Shown here: piece by piece, positions 7,331 to 23,083 of the stretch
Layout of the letters: every line of letters begins with the position of its first letter
How positions within the stretch are numbered: the first letter of the stretch is position 1
Source of the DNA: TPA_inf: Saccharomyces
Lineage: Eukaryota
Assembly: GCA_000146045.2 (NCBI GenBank)
Contig: BK006939.2
Span: 480,001 to 544,000, forward strand
Direction of reading: 5' to 3'
DNA length: 64,000 nucleotides
Notes under the pieces: generated by a model
What the model saw: the letters and a program-made list of their open reading frames with translations, nothing else
The model's database searches: none
What the model was told of the DNA's origin: nothing
Program-made: the position numbers and the translations under genes

Positions 7331-7402
7331 CTCCGATACGGGGAGTCGAACCCCGGTCTCCACGGTGAAAGCGTGATGTGATAGCCGTTACACTATATCG
7401 GA
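7331..7402 (-). tRNA. tE(UUC): tRNA-Glu (anticodon UUC)
   Basis: The reverse complement reads TCCGATATAGTGTAACGGCTATCACATCACGCTTTCACCGTGGAGACCGGGGTTCGACTCCCCGTATCGGAG. This has a cloverleaf with anticodon loop CTTTCAC (UUC) and a GGTTCGACTCC T-arm. There is no intron. Confidence 0.93.
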
Positions 7403-7833
7403 TTAAATTCATGAATTTTTTAGGGCTCCGAATATTGTAAATTCGTTAACAATTCAAGCAACTCATTTAAACAAGTAATCAATAAAGTCAAAATATATAA
7501 ACAAATTAAGATCGCTGCCAAAGTAGTGATCAACCAAGAGACATTAAGGTTGTTATCTCGTGGACCACAACGCACCTAGATGCATGCAAACATAACAACA
7601 GTGGAATTCATTTGTTAGATTTGAATTTGCCTTAACATTGCGGTTCGTAAGTTTTCTAGGTGACAGATACCGGAGAAAGGTGAATCGAACTGTATCGTAA
7701 TGTACTACTACTTACTCATATTTTTGGTTCAGTGGGATTTATTGACGTTAAGCTCACTTTTATCATCCTAGTTCAATGTAAAGATTTATGAGATTATTTA
7801 AAGAAGTTTTCAAAGTATTTGTATGATTAATAG

Positions 7834-8165
7834 TGTTGGAATAAAAATCAACTATCATCTACTAACTAGTATTTACGTTACTAGTATATTATCATATACG
7901 GTGTTAGAAGATGACGCAAATGATGAGAAATAGTCATCTAAATTAGTGGAAGCTGAAACGCAAGGATTGATAATGTAATAGGATCAATGAATATTAACAT
8001 ATAAAACGATGATAATAATATTTATAGAATTGTGTAGAATTGCAGATTCCCTTTTATGGATTCCTAAATCCTAGAGGAGAACTTCTAGTATATCTACATA
8101 CCTAATATTATAGCCTTAATCACAATGGAATCCCAACAATTACATCAAAATCCACATTCTCTACA
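7834..8165 (+). mobile_element. Solo delta LTR (Ty1/Ty2 family), about 332 bp, flanked by a 5-bp target-site duplication AATAG (7829-7833 and 8166-8170)
   Basis: It starts TGTTGGAATAAAAATCAACTATCATCTACTAACTAGTATTTAC... and ends ...ATGGAATCCCAACAATTACATCAAAATCCACATTCTCTACA. It retains the Gag start (the MESQQL ORF at 8125). A perfect AATAG direct repeat flanks it. It lies about 430 bp upstream of tRNA-Glu, a typical Ty1 target window. Confidence 0.88.
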
Positions 8166-8856
8166 AATAGCCCTTCACCTTACATTGCACCACTGGTTGA
8201 ACAGTCCATTTTTAAATCTCTCCCATTTTGTTATTGGTATAATGGGGCATGTAAACCTGTACGAGATCCCCAGAAATTACGATGTAAATACCTACATTGG
8301 TATTACAGTTTTTTATGTGAATTAAAATTTATCATCTTAAGATTATTACCACAGCACTATATTCTGAACATTATTCGAAATGATATAATTCAAATATTCC
8401 CTATCAGTATGTCCATAGGCGATAAAAATGTGATTAAGTAATTTTCGAGCCCCCGCGTTAAGCAAGCATCCATCAATAAAAACTTCATTAACACTCTTAG
8501 ATAATCACTGTAAAAAATTCTAATTATCGGTTAAGGTTATAAAGTTAGGTAGCTGGTAAAAAAGCGATTGATCTCAGACATATCTTTTAAATGTTAAAAC
8601 TCATCGCTCTTCAGGGAAATCTTACGCGCTATTTTTACAGTCGCGCGGGTCTTAACCATAATTTTTTACCGCTGCAAATATTTGAATGCTATAAGAGCAG
8701 ATAAAAAATAGATTATAGAAATTAACCTGTTAAAACAATTATCCAAAATGTAGTAAGTATTTATCTTACGTAAAAAGTTCGATGCATATAAAATAAAATA
8801 GAATATATAAAGAGATACAACAGAGTCTCAAGAAGGAAAAAAGCTTGATGAACCCG

Positions 8857-10578
8857 TTATAAGTAGTAATGTGTATACTTAGCGCTATCCTGGTGAACGC
8901 GCATTTCCTTTCTTTTGAACTCATTCACCTCCATTTTGATTTCAATATTGGATATATTTTTTGTGGATGAGAGATTATTACCGACAAAAGTAGAAGGATT
9001 GGTAATGTCTTGGCTCTTTCCTTTAAAGAAATTATTCAAAAAGGTATTATCACACCTGCAATAGTCCGCGGCGGACCACGTATCGTTTACATAAATCTCA
9101 TCCGCAAAGCGTAAGGATTTGACGGCATTTTTAGATTTCGATGACCCTGAAGAAGGGGCAGGTGTTGGCGAAGAAGATATGGATTGCATTGGTCCACGGG
9201 AAACCAACGATGACGAGGACGAAGAAGAAGGAGCCGGCGATGATATTGAAGAGTTTATGAACGAAGAGTTCGCAGCATCAGTAGTGGTAGAGAGAGAAGA
9301 TGGCACAGAAGCAGTCAAAGGCAATTTGTTTAAATACACGGTAGACCATTCATCCTGCAAACGCTTTAAGAAAACGGTGCTCTTTTCCTCTGGAGCAATA
9401 TCTTCATTAGACGAATCTTGACTACAGTAGTATAACTTTGTAGTTCGTTTATCAGACAGTGTAGGTCTGTTTGGTGACCTAGGGGGTGGAAGAACTGGTA
9501 TCCTGTTATTATCTCCGAGTGCTGTCAATTCTTGTACTATGCCAGAGTCCTTAATTGAAGGTACAGCCGTTTCGTGATTGTTAACGGTTGAAAAACTCTG
9601 TTTTATAATTTCAACCGGTTGGTCAAGGGACGTTATCGGTTCTGGTACAACTCTCTCCGGATTTTTCCTTTTCTGCTTTGTTTTGCTATTCTCTTCTACG
9701 GAATCTGCAGAATTTGATGACTTGGACGACCAGATTTTCCTGAAGAAACGAGATATCTTTTTAGAATTTGATCTAATTGCCTTTGGAGACTCGGATTCAG
9801 ATTTCTGATTAGCATCAGCAGCTTTCGTTTGTTGAGGAGAACGATTGTTCGTGCCAGTGGCAATGGAATCGTTATCTGCGGAAGATGGGCCTCCAGTCTG
9901 GGTCAAAGGCAACGATGAACTAGAAGGAGAGTCGGGAAAAGTCGAAGATGGCGGAAGCCTTGCTATCTGGTTTCTTGGCGTGAAATTTTCACCGTTGGGG
10001 AATTGAAAAGCGCTTTTCATCTGCTTTCTTTGTAATTGGAAAGGAGTAAGTTCCTTCCTAACACGTGGATTAGAATAGGTAGGCGGGGATGATCGGAGAC
10101 TGTAGCGACTACCAGAGTACTTTTCGGGAATGGTCATTAAGGAGTGGCGTCTGGACGGGTTTGGTCTACAACGATATTGCGGGTGCGCATTGTGATCACT
10201 GGTAGTATGGTTGTTCATGTTCATGTTCATGTTCATGTTCATGTTCATATTCATATTCATATTCATATTCATGTTATCGTAGCGAGAGGGGCGATTTCTA
10301 GTTGAAGGCAGAGATGAAGTCGAGGAGGAAGCAAAGTTAGGTTTATTGTACTGGCGCATCGGTGCGCCATTACCATTATTGTCTGATCTATTAGCCACCA
10401 GAGTAGAGTGCCTCCTTGAGACGGTAGCATCCGGTATGTAGAACAGATCAATCGTAGACGCAGATCTAGCGTCCACAGCCCTAGGAATACTCAAAGAGTC
10501 TCTCCTTGAAGGAGAAGTGAGCGTGTGAAAATCATTACCATGCAAACTCCTCCTCGAGGAAGAACCCTGCTGTAACAT
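8857..10578 (-). CDS. YER158C: YER158C, Ser/Asn-rich protein of unknown function (573 aa) with an internal (Asn-Met)n tract
   Basis: A 573-aa ORF starting at a real ATG. It is low-complexity (poly-Ser stretches, an NMNMNM... tract and S/T-P sites). Its position between COG3 and BUR6 fits. Confidence 0.8.
   Translation of the reverse strand: MLQQGSSSRRSLHGNDFHTLTSPSRRDSLSIPRAVDARSASTIDLFYIPDATVSRRHSTLVANRSDNNGNGAPMRQYNKPNFASSSTSSLPSTRNRPSRYDNMNMNMNMNMNMNMNMNMNMNNHTTSDHNAHPQYRCRPNPSRRHSLMTIPEKYSGSRYSLRSSPPTYSNPRVRKELTPFQLQRKQMKSAFQFPNGENFTPRNQIARLPPSSTFPDSPSSSSLPLTQTGGPSSADNDSIATGTNNRSPQQTKAADANQKSESESPKAIRSNSKKISRFFRKIWSSKSSNSADSVEENSKTKQKRKNPERVVPEPITSLDQPVEIIKQSFSTVNNHETAVPSIKDSGIVQELTALGDNNRIPVLPPPRSPNRPTLSDKRTTKLYYCSQDSSNEDIAPEEKSTVFLKRLQDEWSTVYLNKLPLTASVPSSLSTTTDAANSSFINSSISSPAPSSSSSSSLVSRGPMQSISSSPTPAPSSGSSKSKNAVKSLRFADEIYVNDTWSAADYCRCDNTFLNNFFKGKSQDITNPSTFVGNNLSSTKNISNIEIKMEVNEFKRKEMRVHQDSAKYTHYYL
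10213..10272. repeat. Hexanucleotide microsatellite (GTTCAT)6(ATTCAT)4 on the plus strand, equal to (ATGAAY)10 on the coding strand and encoding (Asn-Met)n inside YER158C
   Basis: Ten perfect tandem 6-mers are visible in the sequence. The translation shows NMNMNMNMNMNMNMNMNMNMNMNN. Confidence 0.95.
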
Positions 10579-11529: not shown

Positions 11530-11958
11530 TCAGGCACTCTCTTCCTCCGGTTGTGTTTGGCCTTCTTCTACGCATAGACCTTCCCTTAAGAAATCGAATT
11601 TTTCGTCGTTTAAAATTGTTTTTTTTAGTATTTCGGCGGTTATTCTCTTGGTTCCTTGTCCTCTTGCCATCTCCCCGCTTTTTTTCACCAATAACGCTAT
11701 AAAAAACTCTAGGGACCTGCCCGCTATTACGGGCGTGGCTTGTGAAACTTTTCCTATATCCTCGTCTGTCTGCATTATTTTCTTTACCTTGGCCGGAGGG
11801 AAGTGTGTCTTTATTCTGTCGAATACATCACCTAGCTCGTTGTTGTTATTCGAGTTGGTACCCATGTTACCTACTGGACTCCCTCCAGCATCAAGTGGTA
11901 CCTCATGTTCAGGTTTTATTGGTGGTAGTTGTGTTGTAACTGGTACTTGATCTGCCAT
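11530..11958 (-). CDS. BUR6: BUR6/NCB1, NC2-alpha histone-fold subunit of the negative cofactor 2 complex (142 aa)
   Basis: I recognise the translation MADQVPVTTQLPPIKPEHE...KTHFPPAKVKKIMQTDEDIGKVSQATPVIAGRSLEFFIALLVKKSGEMARGQGTKRITAEILKKTIL. It has an NC2-alpha/HAP5-like histone fold. Confidence 0.9.
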   Translation of the reverse strand: MADQVPVTTQLPPIKPEHEVPLDAGGSPVGNMGTNSNNNNELGDVFDRIKTHFPPAKVKKIMQTDEDIGKVSQATPVIAGRSLEFFIALLVKKSGEMARGQGTKRITAEILKKTILNDEKFDFLREGLCVEEGQTQPEEESA

Positions 11959-12351: not shown

Positions 12352-12424
12352 CTTCCCCGCCAGGACTTGAACCTGGAATCTTCTGGTTCGTAGCCAGACG
12401 CCGTGACCATTGGGCCACGAGGAA
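12352..12424 (-). tRNA. tR(ACG): tRNA-Arg (anticodon ACG)
   Basis: The reverse complement reads TTCCTCGTGGCCCAATGGTCACGGCGTCTGGCTACGAACCAGAAGATTCCAGGTTCAAGTCCTGGCGGGGAAG. The anticodon loop is CTACGAA and the T-arm is GGTTCAAGTCC. A T5 run (plus-strand AAAAA at 12343-12347) lies just downstream as a Pol III terminator. Confidence 0.92.
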
Positions 12425-12438
12425 TAGGATGTTCAGTG

Positions 12439-12695
12439 TGTTGTATTACGGGCTCGAGTAATACCGGAGTGTCTTGACAATCCTAATATAAACAGTCTTA
12501 GGGAAGTAACCAGTTGTCAAAACAGTTTATCAGATTAATTCACGGAATGTTACTTATCTTATATATTATATAAAATATGAATCATACTAAGTGGTGGAAG
12601 CGCGGAATCTCGGATCTAAACTAATTGTTCAGGCATTTATACTTTTGGGTAGTTCAGCTAGGGAAGGACGGGTTTTGTCTCATGTTGTTCGTTTT
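12439..12695 (-). mobile_element. Ty3 sigma LTR, 3' portion (about sigma nt 85-340), beginning 15 bp upstream of the tRNA-Arg mature 5' end and interrupted by the Ty1 insertion
   Basis: The plus strand TGTTGTATTACGGGCTCGAGTAATACCGGAGTGTCTTGACAATCCTAATATAAACAGTCTTAGGGAAGTAACC...GGACGGGTTTTGTCTCATGTTGTTCGTTTT is the reverse complement of the sigma consensus. The position is the classic Ty3 site next to a Pol III start. Confidence 0.85.
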
Positions 12696-12833
12696 TCAAT
12701 CCTTGCGTTTCAGCTTCCTCTAACATCGATGACAGCTTCTCATAACTTATGTCATCATCTTAACACCGTATATGATAATATATTGATAATATAACTATTA
12801 GTTGATAGACGATAGTGGATTTTTATTCCAACA
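12696..12833 (-). repeat. Ty1 3' LTR, truncated. Only the first 138 nt of U3 are present. They are 100% identical to the matching part of the 5' LTR.
   Basis: The plus strand TCAATCCTTGCGTTTCAGCTTCC...TTTTATTCCAACA (12696-12833) is identical to 18284-18421. The rest of the LTR is absent: there is no TGAGATATATG or GGATTCCATTGTTGAT motif to the left. The sequence passes directly into the GTTTT duplication and sigma. Confidence 0.85.
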
Positions 12834-12842
12834 TACCACCCA
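12834..12842 (-). promoter_or_regulatory. Ty1 polypurine tract (TGGGTGGTA) immediately internal to the 3' LTR
   Basis: The plus strand reads TACCACCCA, adjacent to the CCAACA LTR end at 12833. Confidence 0.8.
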
Positions 12843-12855
12843 TAATGTAATAGAT

Positions 12856-15800
12856 CTAATGAATCCATTTGTTTGTTAATAGTTTGAATGTTTTTATCGG
12901 AAGAGGTTTGGTCATTACGTCTGCAATATTCTTTTTGGTTTCGATATAGCATACGTGCAGATGATTTCCTGATACTTCATCTCTTAGTCTCATTGCTTTA
13001 GTACCAAAAAATCTGTTTCTAAATTTCTCTTCATTATTGGATATAATTATACTGATTGTAGATTTACTGTCGGTTAGTAATCCTTTAGTAATTGGTTTCT
13101 TGTTAAGTTCTTGCACAAGGTGACTGAGGTTATTTAATAATGGGACAGATTCACTTATCGCGTGTATTTCTGCTTCCGTAGTTGAAGTACATGTTAATGA
13201 AGCCTTGGTGGACTTTCCTCCAATTACTTTTCCATTAAGTAAATATATGTTGCCAATTTGTGATTTATAATACGGTTGGTTACCATACGATGCATCGCTT
13301 ATAACAACTAATTTATTTGTTGGCTTAACAGGTTTGCTTTTGTGCCATATTAATTGCTTATCTCTCGTATTCCATATGAACTGTATCAATTCATATGTCA
13401 TATCTAACACTTGCTTGGACGGAAATAGTATATGTTGTGCAAGTGTGTTGATGTAGTATAATAGGTCAAATCTAAATTTATATCCAACATATGATGCTAG
13501 ACCTATCAGCTTTTGCATTTCATGTACCTTCATTTTGTAATCATCTTCTTCTAGCTCTAGTTCTTGCTGGTCTATATATAGACCTGGTTGACCTGGAGCG
13601 CTAAGTTTCCTTCCTTTTGGGTTCAAAGGTACGTTTAGTTTGGGTATTTTTTCAGTTAATGAGTTTTCCATACCTAATTTCATGTATTTACCTCTTTGAT
13701 ATTTGATTTCTAAGCCAAGTATGTCGTACTGAATTTCGTTATCACTTTCACCCAGATTTATTATCTTTGTATCGTATTGTTTCTTGAGTGTTGTTATGAT
13801 TTTCTTATTTGCATTTAAGTCTTTGCTGAACAATATCATATCATCAACGAATAAGCAAATTGTTACTTGACTATTCTTAAATACGCATGACCATCCACGA
13901 ACTTCTTCCATACCACACTGTTTTATCAGGTATGATTTGATAGTTTCGTACCAGTTCGCTCCACTTTGTTTCAATCCATAAAGTGATTTCTTCAAACGTA
14001 TTAACTTATCATTCATTCCTAAATGTGGTGGAGGTCTTATGTATAGTTCTTCTTTGATGTCTGCATACAAATATGCCGAAGATATGTCTAATTGTGTAAT
14101 ATAGTAGTTATTGTCTAATGCAAGTGACAGGGATGTCATTAATGCATAGTGATGTACGGTATTGGATTGCATGCCTGGGTCGTAAGTGTCAGGATGTTGA
14201 ATATCACCTCTTGCAACAAATCTAGCTTTATGAGTACCGTCACGTTTCCTGTTAAAGATAAACATTGAATTTATTACTCTTTTGGGGTCTATTTCTTTTC
14301 TGTCATAATATCTGTCAGTGTCCCAAGTTTTCATCTTCAACAGTTGATTGACTTCTTTGTGGTATGCCTGGATATATTTTTCTTTTTCTTTAATATCTTT
14401 ATTATAGGTGATTGCCTCATCGTATCGTAAGGTTGTTCGTATTGGTTTGATTGATTTTACTGCTTTTACAGCTGCAATCAGGTGAATTCGTTTCTTCGAT
14501 CTCGGAGGTTCTAAACTACGCATATTCTTAGTATTCCATGTGTCTCGTGATACCTTAATTTCAGTTTCATTATCTTCTAATGATCTTTTCTTACTGTTGA
14601 TAGTAGTATAGGCATTAGAGTCACCAATACCACCCAAACTGGAATTAGTTTGATGAGAATTTATCGGTGGGAGTTCTTTAAAGGAGTCTGATAATTCGGT
14701 AGGAGGTTCTGGAGGCAGATCGGGGAGTGGAAGATCAGCGATAATAGATTCCTCTGTATTCTCCTTAGGACAGGTATCTGACGTTTTGATAGGAACGACG
14801 TGGTGTAGTGAATTACTTTCTGATGAGGAAGTATCGATCGAAGGTGAACGGTGTATGATCCTTTTCTCAGTCTCCTGTTCGCTTGTCTGCGGAACAGTTT
14901 TATTATTGGTACCACCCGTACTGGATATTGGTACGTTTGTATGATTAGTCTCATTGTCACTGTACGAGTCTGAGTGTCTGAAATCTTTAGATTTACTGGC
15001 GTGCGACGACTCATGTGTGTTAGATTGGGACATGGGAGCAAGTAAAGGAACATCTAATCTATGCATACCACCCGAACCGGTACTCTCGATATCGGAAATT
15101 TGGGGGGTGCTAGATCTCTTCTTAGATGGAAGAATATTAGATTCAGATATGTTGGGGTCAACTTCTCTGGGTGCGCGAATATTGGTTTTGGAAACACGTT
15201 TCGAATCTTCAGTATGAGTTGACGGAGGTGTGGAATCGGTTGGACTCACAGCTTTTGAAAGGACATTTCTCAGTTGCTCAGGATGTAGTTCAATGTCAGA
15301 TTGGAAGTCATGGTCAGATTCTATGTTAAGATCATTGGATTGTTGGATCTCATTTGACGCAATGAACGAATGATATGAAGCAGTTAAACGGTTTAAGTCT
15401 TCATCGAAAGTGAGTGCGTCGTAATTGAATTGATCTAATCTGGATTCCTTGCCCTGAAGAATAACATAGTTAGTTGTATCTACTGTCTTCTTTAAGGACG
15501 GAAGATAGATGATATATCCATAAGAGTTTCGAGACGGATGTAGAGCGTAGCCTGGGATGCCACGAGGATGTATTTTGGAGTTAGGGTTGTGATCATTGAC
15601 GATAACAGGTTGACCGAAAGGTAACAAAGTACTGATATCAAGTCCTGCCAAGCCAGCATGTTGTCTTGCAGATTTTTTGCTTTTAGGTGAAGCTAGTGAA
15701 TTTCTCACAATAGTAGAAAATTCGATTGCAGAGAACCATAAATGGTTCGGTAAACCACTACATTGCAGTTGAGTACGGCAGTCATCTAATAAGGTACGGT

Positions 15801-16822
15801 TGAGCCGTTCAGCGACTCCATGTGCTCGGGAATCCGCTGTGGTTGTATAGCATGGAGTTATACCATTTTTTTCAAGGAATTTATGGAGAGTTCTGTTAGT
15901 ATACTCAGAACCACGGTCCATTTGTATAACCAAGACACTGGCCTGAAACTGGTTTTTAATAAAAGCTAGTATCGTAGTAAAAACATCGAGGATAGAGTCC
16001 TCGCGACGGTCGTGTAATGGATAAACCCAACGGAATTTTGTTGTCTCATCAGTAAATGAGATGAAATAGGATGGTGCACTTTTTGGTAGGTTGTGAACTG
16101 GACCAAATATGTCAGTATGTAGGTATTGAAAGGGTTCGTATGAATTTTGGTATTTTAGTCGTGAACCTTTGATATGTCTGTGTTTGGTGCTTTTGCCGAT
16201 TAAACAATCAGGACATTGATAGTCAATAGCACTAGACCAGTCGACATCTGATTCGTTAAAATACGTGATGGTGTTATTTTTAAGTGAGTATCGAATTGTC
16301 TGTGCATTGGCATGTGCAAGCATTCGATGAATGAAAGGATAAGGATATTTGCGTGTACTTTCACTTGTATGGACATTATTGATGGTGGGTACGGAGATAT
16401 TTGATGGAAGCAAGTACTTTTTAGATACCCAGTAAAAGTCTCCATATTTTACGATAGGTGCAAGTACAGTGCCGTCAGACCGTTCTAAGACGTTTTTGGT
16501 AAAGCATGCTGTGATATCTACTGCAGCCAATTCATTCAAACTGAGTAAGTCATAGGCTATGTTAGGAGTGTGCAATACCTTTATTGATGTTTTGGTGTTG
16601 TCCTGGAAGTGAAATTGTAGGTCACCAATAGCGTTAATTGGTATATTTCTTTTTTGAGCATCAACTACGTTTATGTCAGGATTAGATGATGCTGAGTGTA
16701 TGTGATGAGCAGATCTTATAAGGGTTCGTGATGCTCCTGAATCGAGAAGGAGGTGTCCAGGGAGTTCATCATCAGAATGATTAGTATGATTTACTGTAGA
16801 TTCAGTAAGTTTCTGGCCTAAG
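12856..16822 (-). CDS. TYB1: Ty1 TYB (Pol: protease-integrase-reverse transcriptase-RNase H), expressed as a Gag-Pol fusion by a +1 ribosomal frameshift at the CUU-AGG-C heptamer. The TYB frame is open from 16818 down to the stop at 12856-12858.
   Basis: The track shows 1239 aa from an internal Met. The frame is continuous upstream to the heptamer. The integrase zinc-binding and DDE region and the RT motif [10 protein letters not shown] are present. Confidence 0.9.
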
Positions 16823-18124
16823 ATGAAGGTCGTGCTTATTGTTCAATTGAATCGGTTCAGTAGTTGATTTACTGATGGAATCGTTGTCCGTGCTGGGAGA
16901 GTTATTAGATGTGGATACATTGTGAGCCCTGGCTGTTTTCGATTTCGAATTATTTGTTTTTTGAGGATTCCGAGCTATAACTTTGGGTTTGGTTGTATTC
17001 GTATAGCTGCGAGAATCATTCTTCTCATCACTCGGATTTCTCCTGTAATTAGGTTTGCTGTTTCTCGATCCCTGTTGTTCTTCATAAATAGCATGGATAT
17101 CTAAGAACAGTTCAGCGACTGTCATATTTAGATGTCGATGACGTGTGTAGCGTAAAAATTTATATTCGCCAGATAGACCTCTCATAATTAATTGGCATGC
17201 GACCTTGTTATTGATATGAATGCCATTATTGTTCAGTCTGTCGATAATGTTTGTGACTTTTGTTTCAAATGCATCTGCAGGTGTACTGCCATTATATTGC
17301 AAATTTGCCAGGGTCACAATGTCGTTTGCCTCTTGGGTATCAGATTGCATTTTTTCAATACTTTTGGAAAGAATTTTCATGATATCCGTATAATCAACGG
17401 ATAGGATGTCTTTGACCCAGGTAGGTAGGAATTGAGAGGGAGCAAATATTTGAAAAGTGTTATACAAGAAGGTGAGTTCATCATCAGTGATCTGACGTAC
17501 GGGTTTTCCGTTTACTGTCGGAATAATACCACCGAGATTCGAGTTTTGTAAAAATTTGATGTATGTTTTAACCCAATTTGGAAAATCATTAGGTGAGGTT
17601 AACATTGGTGGTGGTCTGACATATTTTTTAGTGGATGTCATATCAGAGTCCGCTGAGGATGAATCAGTAAATGTATTACCTGACTCAGGTGATGGAGTGC
17701 TCAGAGGCGTTCCAACTGATGATGGATACTGCGGAAACTGTGATTGTGGCCCAGGTGGAAAGTACATAGGCGACATTTGATAAGGTGTATACGGAATCAT
17801 AGATGGGTGTCCGTAAAATGACCAACCAGATGGATTGGCTTGGTTTTGGGTCATCATGCACTGCTGTGGGTACGGCCCATTCTGTGGAGGTGGTACTGAA
17901 GCAGGTTGAGGAGAGGCATGATGGGGGTTCTCTGGAACAGCTGATGAAGCAGGTGTTGTTGTCTGTTGAGAGTTAGCCTTAGTGGAAGCCTTATCATATT
18001 CTTGAATTTTGGAAGCTGAAACGTCTAACGGATCTTGATTTGTGTGGACTTCCTTAGAAGTAACCGAAGCACAGGCGCTACCATGAGATATATGTGGGTA
18101 ATTAGATAATTGTTGGGATTCCAT
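16802..18124 (-). CDS. TYA1: Ty1 TYA (Gag), 440 aa
   Basis: The ORF track gives 440 aa. The protein is the canonical Ty1 Gag and starts inside the 5' LTR. Confidence 0.93.
16816..16822 (-). promoter_or_regulatory. Ty1 +1 programmed frameshift heptamer CUUAGGC (plus strand GCCTAAG) in the TYA/TYB overlap
   Basis: GGCCTAAG is visible at 16815-16822. It is in the TYA frame 434 codons after the ATG, and the TYB frame is open downstream of it. Confidence 0.85.
18074..18083 (-). promoter_or_regulatory. Ty1 minus-strand primer binding site (TGGTAGCGCC, complementary to the 3' end of initiator tRNA-Met), immediately internal to the 5' LTR
   Basis: The plus strand reads GGCGCTACCA, abutting the LTR end TGAGATA. 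Confidence 0.85.
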
Positions 18125-18421
18125 TGTTGATAAAGGCTATAATATTAGGTATACAGAATATACTAGAAGTTCTCCTCGAGGATATAGGAATCCTCAAAAT
18201 GGGATCTATATTTCTACATACTAATATTACGATTATTCCTCATTCCGTTTTATATGTTTATATTCATTGATCCTATTACATTATCAATCCTTGCGTTTCA
18301 GCTTCCTCTAACATCGATGACAGCTTCTCATAACTTATGTCATCATCTTAACACCGTATATGATAATATATTGATAATATAACTATTAGTTGATAGACGA
18401 TAGTGGATTTTTATTCCAACA
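18084..18421 (-). repeat. Ty1 5' LTR (delta), 338 bp. It contains the TYA start codon (complement of 18122-18124).
   Basis: On the plus strand the LTR starts at TGAGATATATG (18084) and ends in ...TTATTCCAACA at 18421. The element-strand termini are TGTTGG...TCTCA. Confidence 0.9.
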
Positions 18422-18510
18422 GTTTTGTTATAAGGTTGTTTCATATGTGTTTTATGAACGTTTAGGATGACGTATTGTCATACTGACGTATCTCATTTTG
18501 AGATACAACA
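18422..18510 (-). mobile_element. Ty3 sigma LTR, remaining 5' portion (about nt 1-89), on the far side of the Ty1 insertion
   Basis: GTTTTGTTATAAGGTTGTTTCATATGTGTTTTATGAACGTTTAGGATGACGTATTGTCATACTGACGTATCTCATTTTGAGATACAACA is the reverse complement of the sigma start TGTTGTATCTCAAAATGAGATA.... It continues exactly where the left sigma piece stops. The shared GTTTT is the Ty1 target-site duplication. Confidence 0.85.
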
Positions 18511-18891
18511 CAGTGGGCTAAGAATATACAACCGTTTTAGTCAATGTGTTGAAATATCATATTTTAATGCATTGCTCGAATCTCTTCCTTCGACTTACTT
18601 ATATTGATTAAGGGTATGTATTTGATCCTTCCACCTGGAAAAACTGAGGACCTTACAGTGTTATTAAGTGTATGATGTATCACTGTCGTTGTAGTATTTC
18701 TCGGGAAGTTTTTCACTGGCAATTGGAGGTTGCTAGAGTTTCTTTTAACGCATACCCTAAACGCTTGTTTCTATTTTAATGACTACTTGAATCCTATCTA
18801 ACTGGTGACACAATTTGTTTCATTTTTTAATATCTCACCTAATATATCCTAATAATATGAACATACCATAGCTCTTGTAAAGCTGGTCCAT

Positions 18892-20629: not shown

Positions 20630-22894
20630 TCAGTCTGATTCCTCTGACATCTCTAGTTCTTTCATAAAATCCGAATAATCCTCCCCGACATCGTCGTCTG
20701 TAGCACTTTCCTCCGCTTTGTCAACAGAAACATAATCTAAACTATCTTCTGGCTCTGAAGGTTCACTATACGGCCTTGCTTCGTGGTTTGCTATACCTGG
20801 TAGGAACCCACCTCCCATAAAAGTCTCCGTATTATCGTGATTGTCCGCAATATTCTGTTCCTTCGTAACGTTAGGTTCTTCCTCGGCAATTTTACCATAT
20901 GTGGAGTTCAGCTTGCTACGAATACGCAGTTTTAGCAGTAAAGTATTCCAACTCTCCAAAGCACCAAGCAAATGTTCCTTCCTATTATCATCCTCTTGAA
21001 TAAACTCTATTCCATCAATAGCGGTTTCAATAGCTTCTCTGAGCCACTTTGCAACAACAATGCCACTTAAAACTGGCTTAACTGTACTGCCGCGTTCAAA
21101 CTTAAAAGAAGTTACAGCAGGTGCAAATTCCACCCCCAAAAACCTAGCAGCTTTAATTGCCACAGGATTCTCAACCAAACAACAGTTACCAGGTATCATC
21201 GTTGGTGCAAAAACTTCGATGTTTCCAAATGTATTCTTGGTTATTTCACCGCTCGCACTGGCTAATGGAGGGATGTATAATTCTGTGTCTTCAAAGCTAT
21301 ATAATCTTTCATCTTCTTCTTCTGCTTCGCCCTTAGGCCTTCCAACTGTCCTCTTTATCACCTTTTTACACCTGCTACCAGTTTTTAAAATTCGGCCGTT
21401 CATGTACCATTGTCTAGCACTTTTCAAATCCGCAATATCTCTTTTTGCATAAACTTTCAAAACCTTCCCAACTTTTCCATGTACTTTTAAATATCCACAC
21501 TCTTTACATCCTGGCTTTACAATTTGAGTCTGTTTGATATCTTGTTCTAAAACATAATATGGGTGGTTTTTCAAATCCTGCACCGAATCTGGTATGCCTT
21601 CACTTTCATCTCTCTGAAAAAAATATTGATCTTCGTAATCATCAATTTTGGTTCTCTTTCTATGGTGAAGTGCTGTTATCACTTTTCTGAACCATTTCTC
21701 ACCAAAGTCATCTTTAGTAATTCTTCTTTTTCTTACTTTAGAGTTCATCCATTGGGCATATCTTCGAGTTACATCTCTACAGCCATACTTCCGATCGTAA
21801 GCAATCACGTACCTCAACATATTTCTTTCGCAGCACGCCACGCCTTTCGGTGCCAACTTGGAATGAAGTCTGACCTGTTCAATGGTTTTGAGATTTACTG
21901 GGTCAACAGTTATCCATTTCTTAGAGAATTTGTCCCACACTTCACACCAAAAAATCGGATACTTGACCATATCTTTGTACGCATTGTTTCCATTCAAAGA
22001 AGTGTCAATCTTCATATTGGTAAAATCTGGCGGTTGACATGACATGATAAGTCGTGCGTTAACATTACAAGCCCTGAGCATCGCAACGAAACCTTGCACT
22101 GAAATATCAGGATCTCCGTGACCTTTACTGACGGCCCTTAAAAAGTCAGATCTTTTCAACGTCTTGAATTTTCTTTTGTTATTGGCGCTCATTTCAATTT
22201 CTTTCCAGGTTCTCATATAAAGTCCCACATTATCATATTTTTTAGTGATCTTCCAGTGTTTTTGCCATAACTCCATGCATTTCTTCAACCCATCTAATAA
22301 TTTCCTAGTACTCCTAAGTGGGAGTTCCTCATCTTTCTGAGGATGCAGTAGCTCAAACACTTTCTCAGGAACTAAGTTGCTCAGTTTTCTAGACAAGCGC
22401 TTGCTGTTAATCCATTCATTTCGTATAAATCCATGAACCATCAAGCAAACTAGATACAACATGTGGAAATATTTTCTCCTTTTCCGTTCTTCATTAGAAC
22501 AAACGTTGCGGCTTGTCCTTCTAGCATCACTATTCCTTTTACTAGAGGGCTTAATTTCAACAGATATATCTTCTACACCGGCCACCTCATTTCCATCTGT
22601 CACGTCTTCAAATTCCTCCGAATCATAATCTTCTTCAGATGACTGGATTTCCTCTACACTATCATCCGTCGGTACCGTAACGACGCCATCATCTGAAGAA
22701 TCTAAGTTTACAGTAACAACGCTTTCTCGTGGCAATTCATTCAACCCTGTTTTAAACTTCTTCTTGGCATCTGGTAGGGGCTGGTTCTTCCTTCTGACTC
22801 TTCTTCTTCTACTCAGGGGCGCTTTTTCTGCCTCTTTCTCGTTAAGAGCCTTCCTTATTAGTTCAAAATATTCCTTGGGCAGGTCTTCATTCAT
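20630..22894 (-). CDS. RAD4: RAD4, nucleotide excision repair damage-recognition protein (XPC homolog), 754 aa
   Basis: A 754-aa ORF with an acidic N-terminal region and a transglutaminase-like/BHD-type core. Size and position match YER162C. Confidence 0.85.
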   Translation of the reverse strand: MNEDLPKEYFELIRKALNEKEAEKAPLSRRRRVRRKNQPLPDAKKKFKTGLNELPRESVVTVNLDSSDDGVVTVPTDDSVEEIQSSEEDYDSEEFEDVTDGNEVAGVEDISVEIKPSSKRNSDARRTSRNVCSNEERKRRKYFHMLYLVCLMVHGFIRNEWINSKRLSRKLSNLVPEKVFELLHPQKDEELPLRSTRKLLDGLKKCMELWQKHWKITKKYDNVGLYMRTWKEIEMSANNKRKFKTLKRSDFLRAVSKGHGDPDISVQGFVAMLRACNVNARLIMSCQPPDFTNMKIDTSLNGNNAYKDMVKYPIFWCEVWDKFSKKWITVDPVNLKTIEQVRLHSKLAPKGVACCERNMLRYVIAYDRKYGCRDVTRRYAQWMNSKVRKRRITKDDFGEKWFRKVITALHHRKRTKIDDYEDQYFFQRDESEGIPDSVQDLKNHPYYVLEQDIKQTQIVKPGCKECGYLKVHGKVGKVLKVYAKRDIADLKSARQWYMNGRILKTGSRCKKVIKRTVGRPKGEAEEEDERLYSFEDTELYIPPLASASGEITKNTFGNIEVFAPTMIPGNCCLVENPVAIKAARFLGVEFAPAVTSFKFERGSTVKPVLSGIVVAKWLREAIETAIDGIEFIQEDDNRKEHLLGALESWNTLLLKLRIRSKLNSTYGKIAEEEPNVTKEQNIADNHDNTETFMGGGFLPGIANHEARPYSEPSEPEDSLDYVSVDKAEESATDDDVGEDYSDFMKELEMSEESD

Positions 22895-23083
22895 TTTAGC
22901 GGAAAAATAGTGTCGTTATGTCTCTGCTTGTCGTCCTGTTTGAACTGCATAAAATTTGCATATATTGTGCATGCATTAAAGGTACTTAACCGCATTTTTC
23001 CATTTTCCGCCGCACTATATAGATGGTAGAAAAGCAAGAGGAGAACCTTACATAGTTAATCAAGATATGTATACATATTTCAT

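Follow-up and report, generated by a model that had tools for sequence, protein, structure and literature searches.

How does a Ty1 retrotransposon come to have one complete LTR and one that stops partway through U3, flush with a target-site duplication, and what can such a copy still do? This question is raised by an element within a 64,000-nucleotide stretch of Saccharomyces DNA (GenBank assembly GCA_000146045.2, contig BK006939.2, forward-strand positions 480,001 to 544,000), here called the window and numbered from its first letter. Matching loci from other assemblies are designated by L numbers.

Identity and annotation of the element

[quoted passage not shown] The element itself is the annotated S. 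cerevisiae S288C retrotransposon YERCTy1-2 (YER159C-A and YER160C; Ty1-ER2), which occupies 12696-18421 of the minus strand. The Gag-Pol that it encodes matches NP_011087.3/Q03619, the Transposon Ty1-ER2 Gag-Pol polyprotein, exactly, and its Gag sequence is also found under S288C gag accessions. The computed length of 5726 bp is that of a canonical Ty1 (5926 bp) minus 200 bp, in agreement with an earlier sequence-only reading of the window, which had estimated the element to be shorter than the canonical 5.9-kb Ty1.

YERCTy1-2, its 5726-bp length, and its nesting are already in the published annotation; the sequence-only reading had not identified it as a known element. File S2 of Carr, Bensasson, and Bergman 2012 (PMC3511429) lists YERCTy1-2 at chrV:492691-498416 (5726 bp), classes it as “Full,” “Active,” and polymorphic, and nests it in a Ty3 LTR annotated at 492434-498505; the chromosomal coordinates of the element span the same length as those in the window, at an offset of +479,995. 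An excerpt of PMC9879454 places the element near 498 kb. Nguyen et al. 2021 (PMC8487063) state that, among 32 SGD Ty1 copies, “two harbor an uncomplete LTR,” with the elements not named there. In the article portions covered by literature text searches, no discussion of the origin or effect of this LTR truncation was found, and the statement in PMC8487063 was the only relevant one. The mildly new point is only the argument, developed below, that the flush junction records aberrant integration.

Among nine exact-sequence protein look-ups, the sole nonmatch was a 573-aa open reading frame at the position of YER158C (8857-10578, minus strand). At this position in other strains, a 573-aa product is called, and the neighboring S288C proteins matched.

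Insertion into a sigma element upstream of a tRNA gene

YERCTy1-2 is nested in a Ty3 solo LTR (sigma) next to a tRNA gene, with the following features.

12352-12424, minus strand: tRNA-Arg(ACG) gene (ARAGORN), a Pol III target that draws both Ty3 and Ty1
12434-12438, no strand: left sigma target duplication, CAGTG, the same pentamer as at 18511-18515
12439-12695, minus strand: sigma part B, nt 85-341, including the promoter-distal copy of the Ty1 duplication
12691-12695, no strand: Ty1 target-site duplication on the side of the truncated 3' LTR, GTTTT on the plus strand and AAAAC in element orientation
18422-18426, no strand: Ty1 target-site duplication on the side of the 5' LTR, GTTTT on the plus strand
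18422-18510, minus strand: sigma part A, nt 1-89, on the same strand as the Ty1
18511-18515, no strand: right sigma target duplication, CAGTG, directly outside the other sigma end

Removal of the Ty1 together with one AAAAC restores a sigma of 341 bp with the ends TGTTGTAT...ATACAACA. As in other Ty3 sigma solo LTRs at tRNA genes (∼340 bp, 8-bp inverted termini, a 5-bp duplication, and a position within ∼20 bp of the tRNA 5' end), the restored element is bounded by a duplicated pentamer, CAGTG, and ends 15 bp upstream of the 5' end of tRNA-Arg(ACG); unlike those, it is interrupted, with nt 1-89 on one side of the Ty1 and nt 85-341 on the other. The Ty1 insertion point lies 272 bp upstream of the tRNA gene. 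Sigma part B is 100% identical to the unbroken sigma in L004, L012, and L013, and the rebuilt empty-site 45-mer was found exactly, with a single AAAAC each, in the Ty1-free alleles L003, L004/L012, and L013. Because Ty1-free strains carry the rebuilt empty site exactly, AAAAC/GTTTT is the true Ty1 target-site duplication.

The sigma that hosts YERCTy1-2 is itself polymorphic between strains. Its distal part keeps a TATAAA box (12643-12648, minus strand) and downstream sequence, aimed at the tRNA gene, and a transcript initiated in sigma could overlap the predicted end region of the Ty1 read-through RNA considered below.

Structure of the LTRs and of the junction

The two LTRs of YERCTy1-2 are of unequal length.

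12696-12833, minus strand: truncated 3' LTR, U3 nt 1-138 only, identical at 138/138 positions to 18284-18421, ending in ...GGATTGA
18084-18421, minus strand: complete 5' LTR (delta), 338 bp, TG...CA, reading TGTTGG...TCTCA in element orientation

When the LTR pair is anchored with 12833 on 18421, identity extends to 12696/18284, and divergence is full from 12695/18283 onward; alignment and repeat search agree on this limit. The central observations of the sequence-only reading thus stand: the 5' LTR is a full 338 bp, the 3' LTR consists of its first 138 nt at 100% identity, and the ∼200 bp beyond them are gone, so that the truncated LTR touches the GTTTT at 12691-12695. The clipped end meets the duplication (AAAAC in element orientation) flush, with no base extra and none missing. 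Among the findings that the reading had named as speaking against it was the missing segment (LTR nt 139-338) turning up between 12439 and 12700; a 14-mer search of the window detected none of these 200 bp in that interval. The other 14-mer matches to the missing segment in the window were to a diverged solo delta at 7834-8165 and a single 14-mer at 11751.

A Ty1 is expected to carry two complete direct LTRs of ∼334-338 bp that begin with TG and end with CA, whereas the 3' LTR here is 138 bp long and ends in GA. By contrast, the six other Ty1 copies with the same Gag all possess full 3' LTRs and 5-bp duplications. A small hairpin, ATTGAT/ATCAAT, formed by LTR nt 134-139 and 151-156, overlaps the breakpoint and is too weak to serve as evidence.

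Coding capacity and cis-acting signals

Apart from the 3' LTR, the hallmarks of a Ty1 are in place.

12706-12718, minus strand: 13-nt U3 segment GGAAGCTGAAACG (3' LTR U3 nt 116-128), a perfect complement to Ty1 RNA nt 155-167
12834-12841, minus strand: polypurine tract PPT1, GGGTGGTA, adjoining the 3' LTR
12856-18124, minus strand: TYA-TYB (Gag-Pol, 1755 aa), translated via a +1 frameshift
16802-18124, minus strand: TYA (Gag, 440 aa), from translation
16816-16822, minus strand: +1 frameshift site CTTAGGC, from translation
18074-18083, minus strand: primer-binding site TGGTAGCGCC, adjoining the 5' LTR

The coding capacity is intact, as the sequence-only reading had it, with a Gag of 440 aa and a Gag-Pol that matches Ty1-ER2 exactly. 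The frameshifted Gag/Gag-Pol, the primer-binding site complementary to initiator tRNA-Met, the polypurine tract, and the 5-bp duplication are those of Ty1 (Pseudoviridae/copia type), and YERCTy1-2 is a structurally defective member of this family, not a nonmember. Compared with canonical Ty1 (Ty1-H3 and the S288C copies in L024-L029), it shares the 338-bp delta 5' LTR, the primer-binding site, the polypurine tract, the 440-aa Gag, the 1755-aa Gag-Pol, CTTAGGC, the 5-bp duplication, and insertion upstream of a Pol III gene. It differs in that its 3' LTR stops at U3 nt 138, for a length of 5726 versus 5926 bp, whereas the six comparison copies are complete.

The signals affected by the loss were located by a motif scan of the 338-bp LTR, which placed TATA motifs at nt 160/168, a TS1-like motif, TAGTATGTAG, at nt 199, a start-site motif, GAGGAGAAC, at nt 245, and the gag ATG at nt 298. 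Because all of these lie past nt 138, the 3' LTR is without R, U5, and the Ty1 3'-end signals; it also lacks TATA, the start site, and the terminal CA. An autonomous copy carries R and signals for 3'-end formation at its 3' end; here, the start site at nt 245 and the TS1-like motif at nt 199, with everything beyond, are absent from the 3' LTR. The 13-nt U3 segment is retained, 10 nt from the breakpoint. Its computed 5' partner is CGTTTCAGCTTCC (Ty1 RNA nt 155-167, window 18011-18023), and, judging from this complementarity, the two probably constitute the CYC3/CYC5 cyclization pair, a naming that we take to be that of Cristofari et al. in 2002.

The junction in other assemblies

Alleles of the locus were sought by look-ups with S288C SPT2, S288C RAD4, sake-type SPT2, and Ty1 Gag, and the statements on alleles here apply to the matches listed. 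The identical truncated junction was found in at least three other assemblies, L007 (GCA_947370305.1), L011 (GCA_010356935.1), and L031 (GCA_002571405.2), the last of which we take to be CEN.PK113-7D. Their chromosomes V measure 570,894 bp, 582,809 bp, and 577,587 bp, respectively, and each has its own indels or length. These data bear on whether the junction is an assembly or sequencing artifact of the reference chromosome V, a concern raised in the sequence-only reading along with the suggestion to compare other assemblies. Ty elements are well known to collapse in Sanger and short-read assemblies, and N gaps occur at this very locus in several of them (L009). However, the junction is the same in three assemblies with different chromosome lengths and indels of their own, and the design of the synthetic chromosome V also treats the Ty1 boundary at this position; the chance of an artifact is therefore negligible.

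Among the matches listed, the Ty1-bearing alleles are all truncated and all of S288C lineage; the remaining alleles show an empty sigma, no sigma, or other LTRs. Among these matches, neither an intact 3' LTR nor a full solo delta occurs at this site in 23 SPT2/RAD4-anchored loci. Metagenome scans yielded no match to the hypothetical intact junction, and the truncated-junction control also had no match, so that these scans do not bear on the question.

The insertion is polymorphic: of the 11 SGRP strains that could be scored, 3 carry it according to Carr et al. 2012 (PMC3511429). In the table of that study, YERCTy1-2 is also scored as “present” in K11, a score that K7-type assemblies do not support. 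In L013 the site is empty, and across 14.4 kb on the SPT2 side this haplotype has 1 mismatch to the window. The identical LTR overlap, the polymorphism, and this near-identical empty-site haplotype together indicate that the insertion is young, as the sequence-only reading had supposed from the LTR overlap.

Strain-specific content is common between SPT2 and tRNA-Arg, a region that represents an LTR hotspot (L001, L002, L006, L008, L009, and L016-L021). Examples include an older inverted delta (∼83% identity), an inverted sigma (L016 and L019), tandem or nested delta fragments, and N-gapped Ty insertions (L009). The locus L014 (GCA_033956085.1) is that of the synthetic (Sc2.0) chromosome V, in which a 34-bp loxPsym, ATAACTTCGTATAATGTACATTATACGAAGTTAT (L014 14508-14541), replaces the Ty1, sigma nt 90-341, and tRNA-Arg, with sigma nt 1-89 kept.

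Origin of the truncation

Two explanations carry most of the weight, integration of an already clipped end and later deletion from a complete element, and the evidence at the junction bears on both. The sequence-only reading had proposed a deletion mediated by T-rich microhomology. This proposal does not fit the junction: the overlap between the borders amounts to a single nucleotide (T on the plus strand, A in element orientation), where a microhomology or slippage deletion would have several, and the exact end at the border between LTR and duplication is left unexplained. No direct repeats or extended microhomology were found at the borders. A 1-nt overlap is still compatible with classical nonhomologous end joining (NHEJ), so that a deletion after integration would take the form of a complete Ty1 that lost LTR nt 139-338 (200 bp) by end joining, with an endpoint that fell by chance within 1 nt of the LTR/duplication border.

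Such a deletion is possible but, on balance, rather unlikely. It would fit the 1-nt borders of yeast NHEJ junctions and require no unusual integrase activity, in keeping with the CA-3' requirement of the enzyme (PMC8487063), and Carr et al. 2012 (PMC3511429) report five Ty elements truncated by deletion rather than by LTR-LTR recombination. However, it demands a coincidence, with some 2 acceptable endpoints among hundreds, and there is nothing in the way of direct repeats or extended microhomology to drive slippage. Furthermore, the insertion is very young, leaving little time for a rare nonhomologous event, and the intact-LTR allele or full solo delta that could document a complete precursor is missing from the 23 anchored loci among the matches listed.

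We lean toward the view that the truncation arose at integration and not by later deletion. A normal-length duplication directly abutting the truncated end, which is a necessary but not sufficient sign of truncation before integration, is what the junction displays. The border homology of 1 nt rules out slippage and extended microhomology, later end joining would need a coincidence, and the recent insertion leaves little time for later deletion. The complete 5' LTR implies that, at the time of plus-strand strong-stop synthesis, the right LTR on the cDNA minus strand was complete; in that case, the defect would lie in the final plus-strand synthesis or in breakage of that end. In the proposed sequence of events, reverse transcription would fail at its final stage: as the plus strand was extended across the right LTR, synthesis would stop at U3 nt 138, or the end would break there, to leave ...GGATTGA-3'OH. 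The Ty1 integrase would then insert the element at target sites 5 bp apart, using this clipped 3' end on one side and the normal U3 end on the other, and host gap repair would trim the unpaired 200-nt minus-strand flap. The outcome would be a clipped LTR flush with a normal duplication.

A precedent comes from the type 2 defective proviruses of HTLV-1 (Miyazaki et al. 2007, cited in an excerpt of PMC6950816), in which a 6-bp duplication made by integrase abuts internal sequence at the truncated end. In that excerpt, the arrangement is taken as proof of truncation before integration and read as integrase using an internal end. The parallel has limits: HTLV-1 is a retrovirus in human T cells, and its type 2 proviruses have lost the 5' LTR and internal sequence, whereas YERCTy1-2 has lost only the distal 200 bp of its 3' LTR, with pre-integration truncation inferred.

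Whether Ty1 integrase would accept such an end is the main point of contention. In vitro, the enzyme is relaxed with respect to its ends in that a terminal A:T suffices (Moore et al. 1995, as cited in part of PMC8487063) and AA ends work at millimolar Mn2+ (PMC8487063). The clipped end terminates in A (GA-3'). Conversely, recombinant Ty1 integrase at physiological metal needs CA-3' for strand transfer and concerted integration (PMC8487063). The present junction is a single case. To our knowledge, no de novo Ty1 insertion of this kind has been reported, and mutated LTR termini reportedly block integration in vivo, as Sharon, Burkett, and Garfinkel are said to have found in 1994. The chances appear even that the clipped LTR preserves, as a natural fossil, a concerted integration in vivo that used a noncanonical right end, ...GGATTGA-3', from an unfinished or broken plus strand, the long 5' flap having been removed by host repair.

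Two further routes were considered. In the first, a chromosomal double-strand break would have taken up a piece of Ty1 cDNA without the help of integrase. Captured fragments are known in yeast and typically have truncated ends; such events were reportedly described by Teng et al. in 1996 and by Moore and Haber in 1996. They are usually short, though, and without a duplication, whereas the perfect 5-bp duplication and a 5' LTR that starts precisely at TG are typical of concerted integrase action, making capture highly improbable here. The second, improbable but somewhat less so, is nested Ty insertion with recombination or gene conversion; a second Ty1, for instance, might have inserted near nt 138 and later been lost, or cDNA might have recombined with a preexisting LTR fragment. 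The region upstream of tRNA-Arg is an LTR hotspot in which other strains have deltas interrupted by newer Ty1s, and deltas at other Ty1 loci are interrupted at nt ∼140 (L030) and nt 159 (L028). However, every scheme that was built either restores the full LTR or leaves a distal LTR fragment, which is absent, as is the second duplication expected at nt 134-138.

YERCTy1-2 can also be set beside the “Truncated” Ty elements of Carr et al. 2012 (PMC3511429). These likewise lost Ty sequence otherwise than by LTR-LTR recombination. They lost a whole LTR and/or internal DNA, however, whereas the internal DNA of YERCTy1-2 is complete and a piece of its 3' LTR survives, and its loss, unlike theirs, ends exactly at the duplication; the element is scored there as “Full, Active.”

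If the truncation did arise at integration, the locus would be an uncommon instance, preserved in nature, of the Ty1 integrase using an aberrant end, parallel to the HTLV-1 defective proviruses. It would mean that near-complete reverse-transcription intermediates can integrate and thereby create coding-competent, cis-dead “helper” copies. The current understanding of Ty1 biology is unchanged by these findings.

Predicted behavior of the copy

The sequence-only reading had predicted that, for want of R and poly(A) signals in the 3' LTR, transcripts would read through into sigma and the tRNA gene. The second part of this prediction is unlikely to hold, as a co-oriented sigma remnant with strong yeast 3'-end motifs precedes the tRNA gene. 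A motif scan of this remnant detected TAGTATGA...TTT and two TATATA motifs 110 to 140 nt downstream, with the following candidate among them.

12560-12590, minus strand: candidate surrogate 3'-end/poly(A) signal TAGTATGATTCATATTTTATATAATATATAAG in sigma, from the motif scan

Given these motifs, polyadenylation in sigma is likelier than entry into the tRNA gene, and the sigma remnant is the more probable endpoint of YERCTy1-2 read-through RNA, with poly(A) sites predicted at about 12500-12560. In addition, the tRNA gene would act as a Pol III roadblock to read-through.

Such an RNA would keep the 5' packaging and priming domain, PPT1, and the 13-nt U3 segment and would be without a 3' R. The minimal mini-Ty1 sufficient for retrotransposition, as described in an excerpt of PMC5454406, included the 3' 357 nt with the 3' LTR. 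From the loss of R, U5, and the 3'-end signals, it is plausible that reverse transcription of YERCTy1-2 cannot be completed with its own RNA as the only template. Because its promoter, coding frames, and cis sites are intact, the copy can probably supply proteins, including p22: the 5' LTR promoter, Gag, Gag-Pol, the primer-binding site, PPT1, and a probable CYC3 are all retained. The role suggested in the sequence-only reading, a protein donor that is defective in cis, is thus a reasonable prediction.

An inability to replicate in cis does not equal genetic death. Ty1 packages two RNAs, so that YERCTy1-2 sequences could be rescued by intermolecular strand transfer or recombination; the copy could serve as a nonautonomous template, with rescue only via a co-packaged Ty1 RNA. 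It also stays a 5.7-kb homology block for ectopic recombination. Documented events include recombination of YERCTy1-2 with YERCTy1-1 and with a chromosome XIII Ty1, according to sources that include PMC9879454.

For users of the reference genome, YERCTy1-2 is usually counted as full length and active, yet its sequence shows that the 3' R, the U5, and the termination signals are gone. The copy is better regarded as a protein/p22 donor and recombination substrate than as an autonomous element. The junction between U3 nt 138 and sigma provides a unique tag by which locus-specific transcription and 3'-end choice could be followed among ∼30 near-identical Ty1 copies.

Other features of the window

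The solo delta at 7834-8165 (plus strand; 332 bp, TGTTGG...TCTACA) has a Ty2-like end, is flanked by an AATAG duplication at 7829-7833 and 8166-8170, and is 80 to 87% similar to the Ty1 LTR. It lies ∼430 bp upstream of a tRNA-Glu(UUC) gene at 7331-7402 and is polymorphic, being cleanly absent from L003, L004, and L012 and present in L013 and the S288C-lineage assemblies. In L031, ∼131 bp of RAD4 are absent relative to the window (L031 3253-3254 versus 22872-23004), giving a product of 610 aa versus 754 aa; this gap reflects either a true difference between strains or a fault in the assembly.
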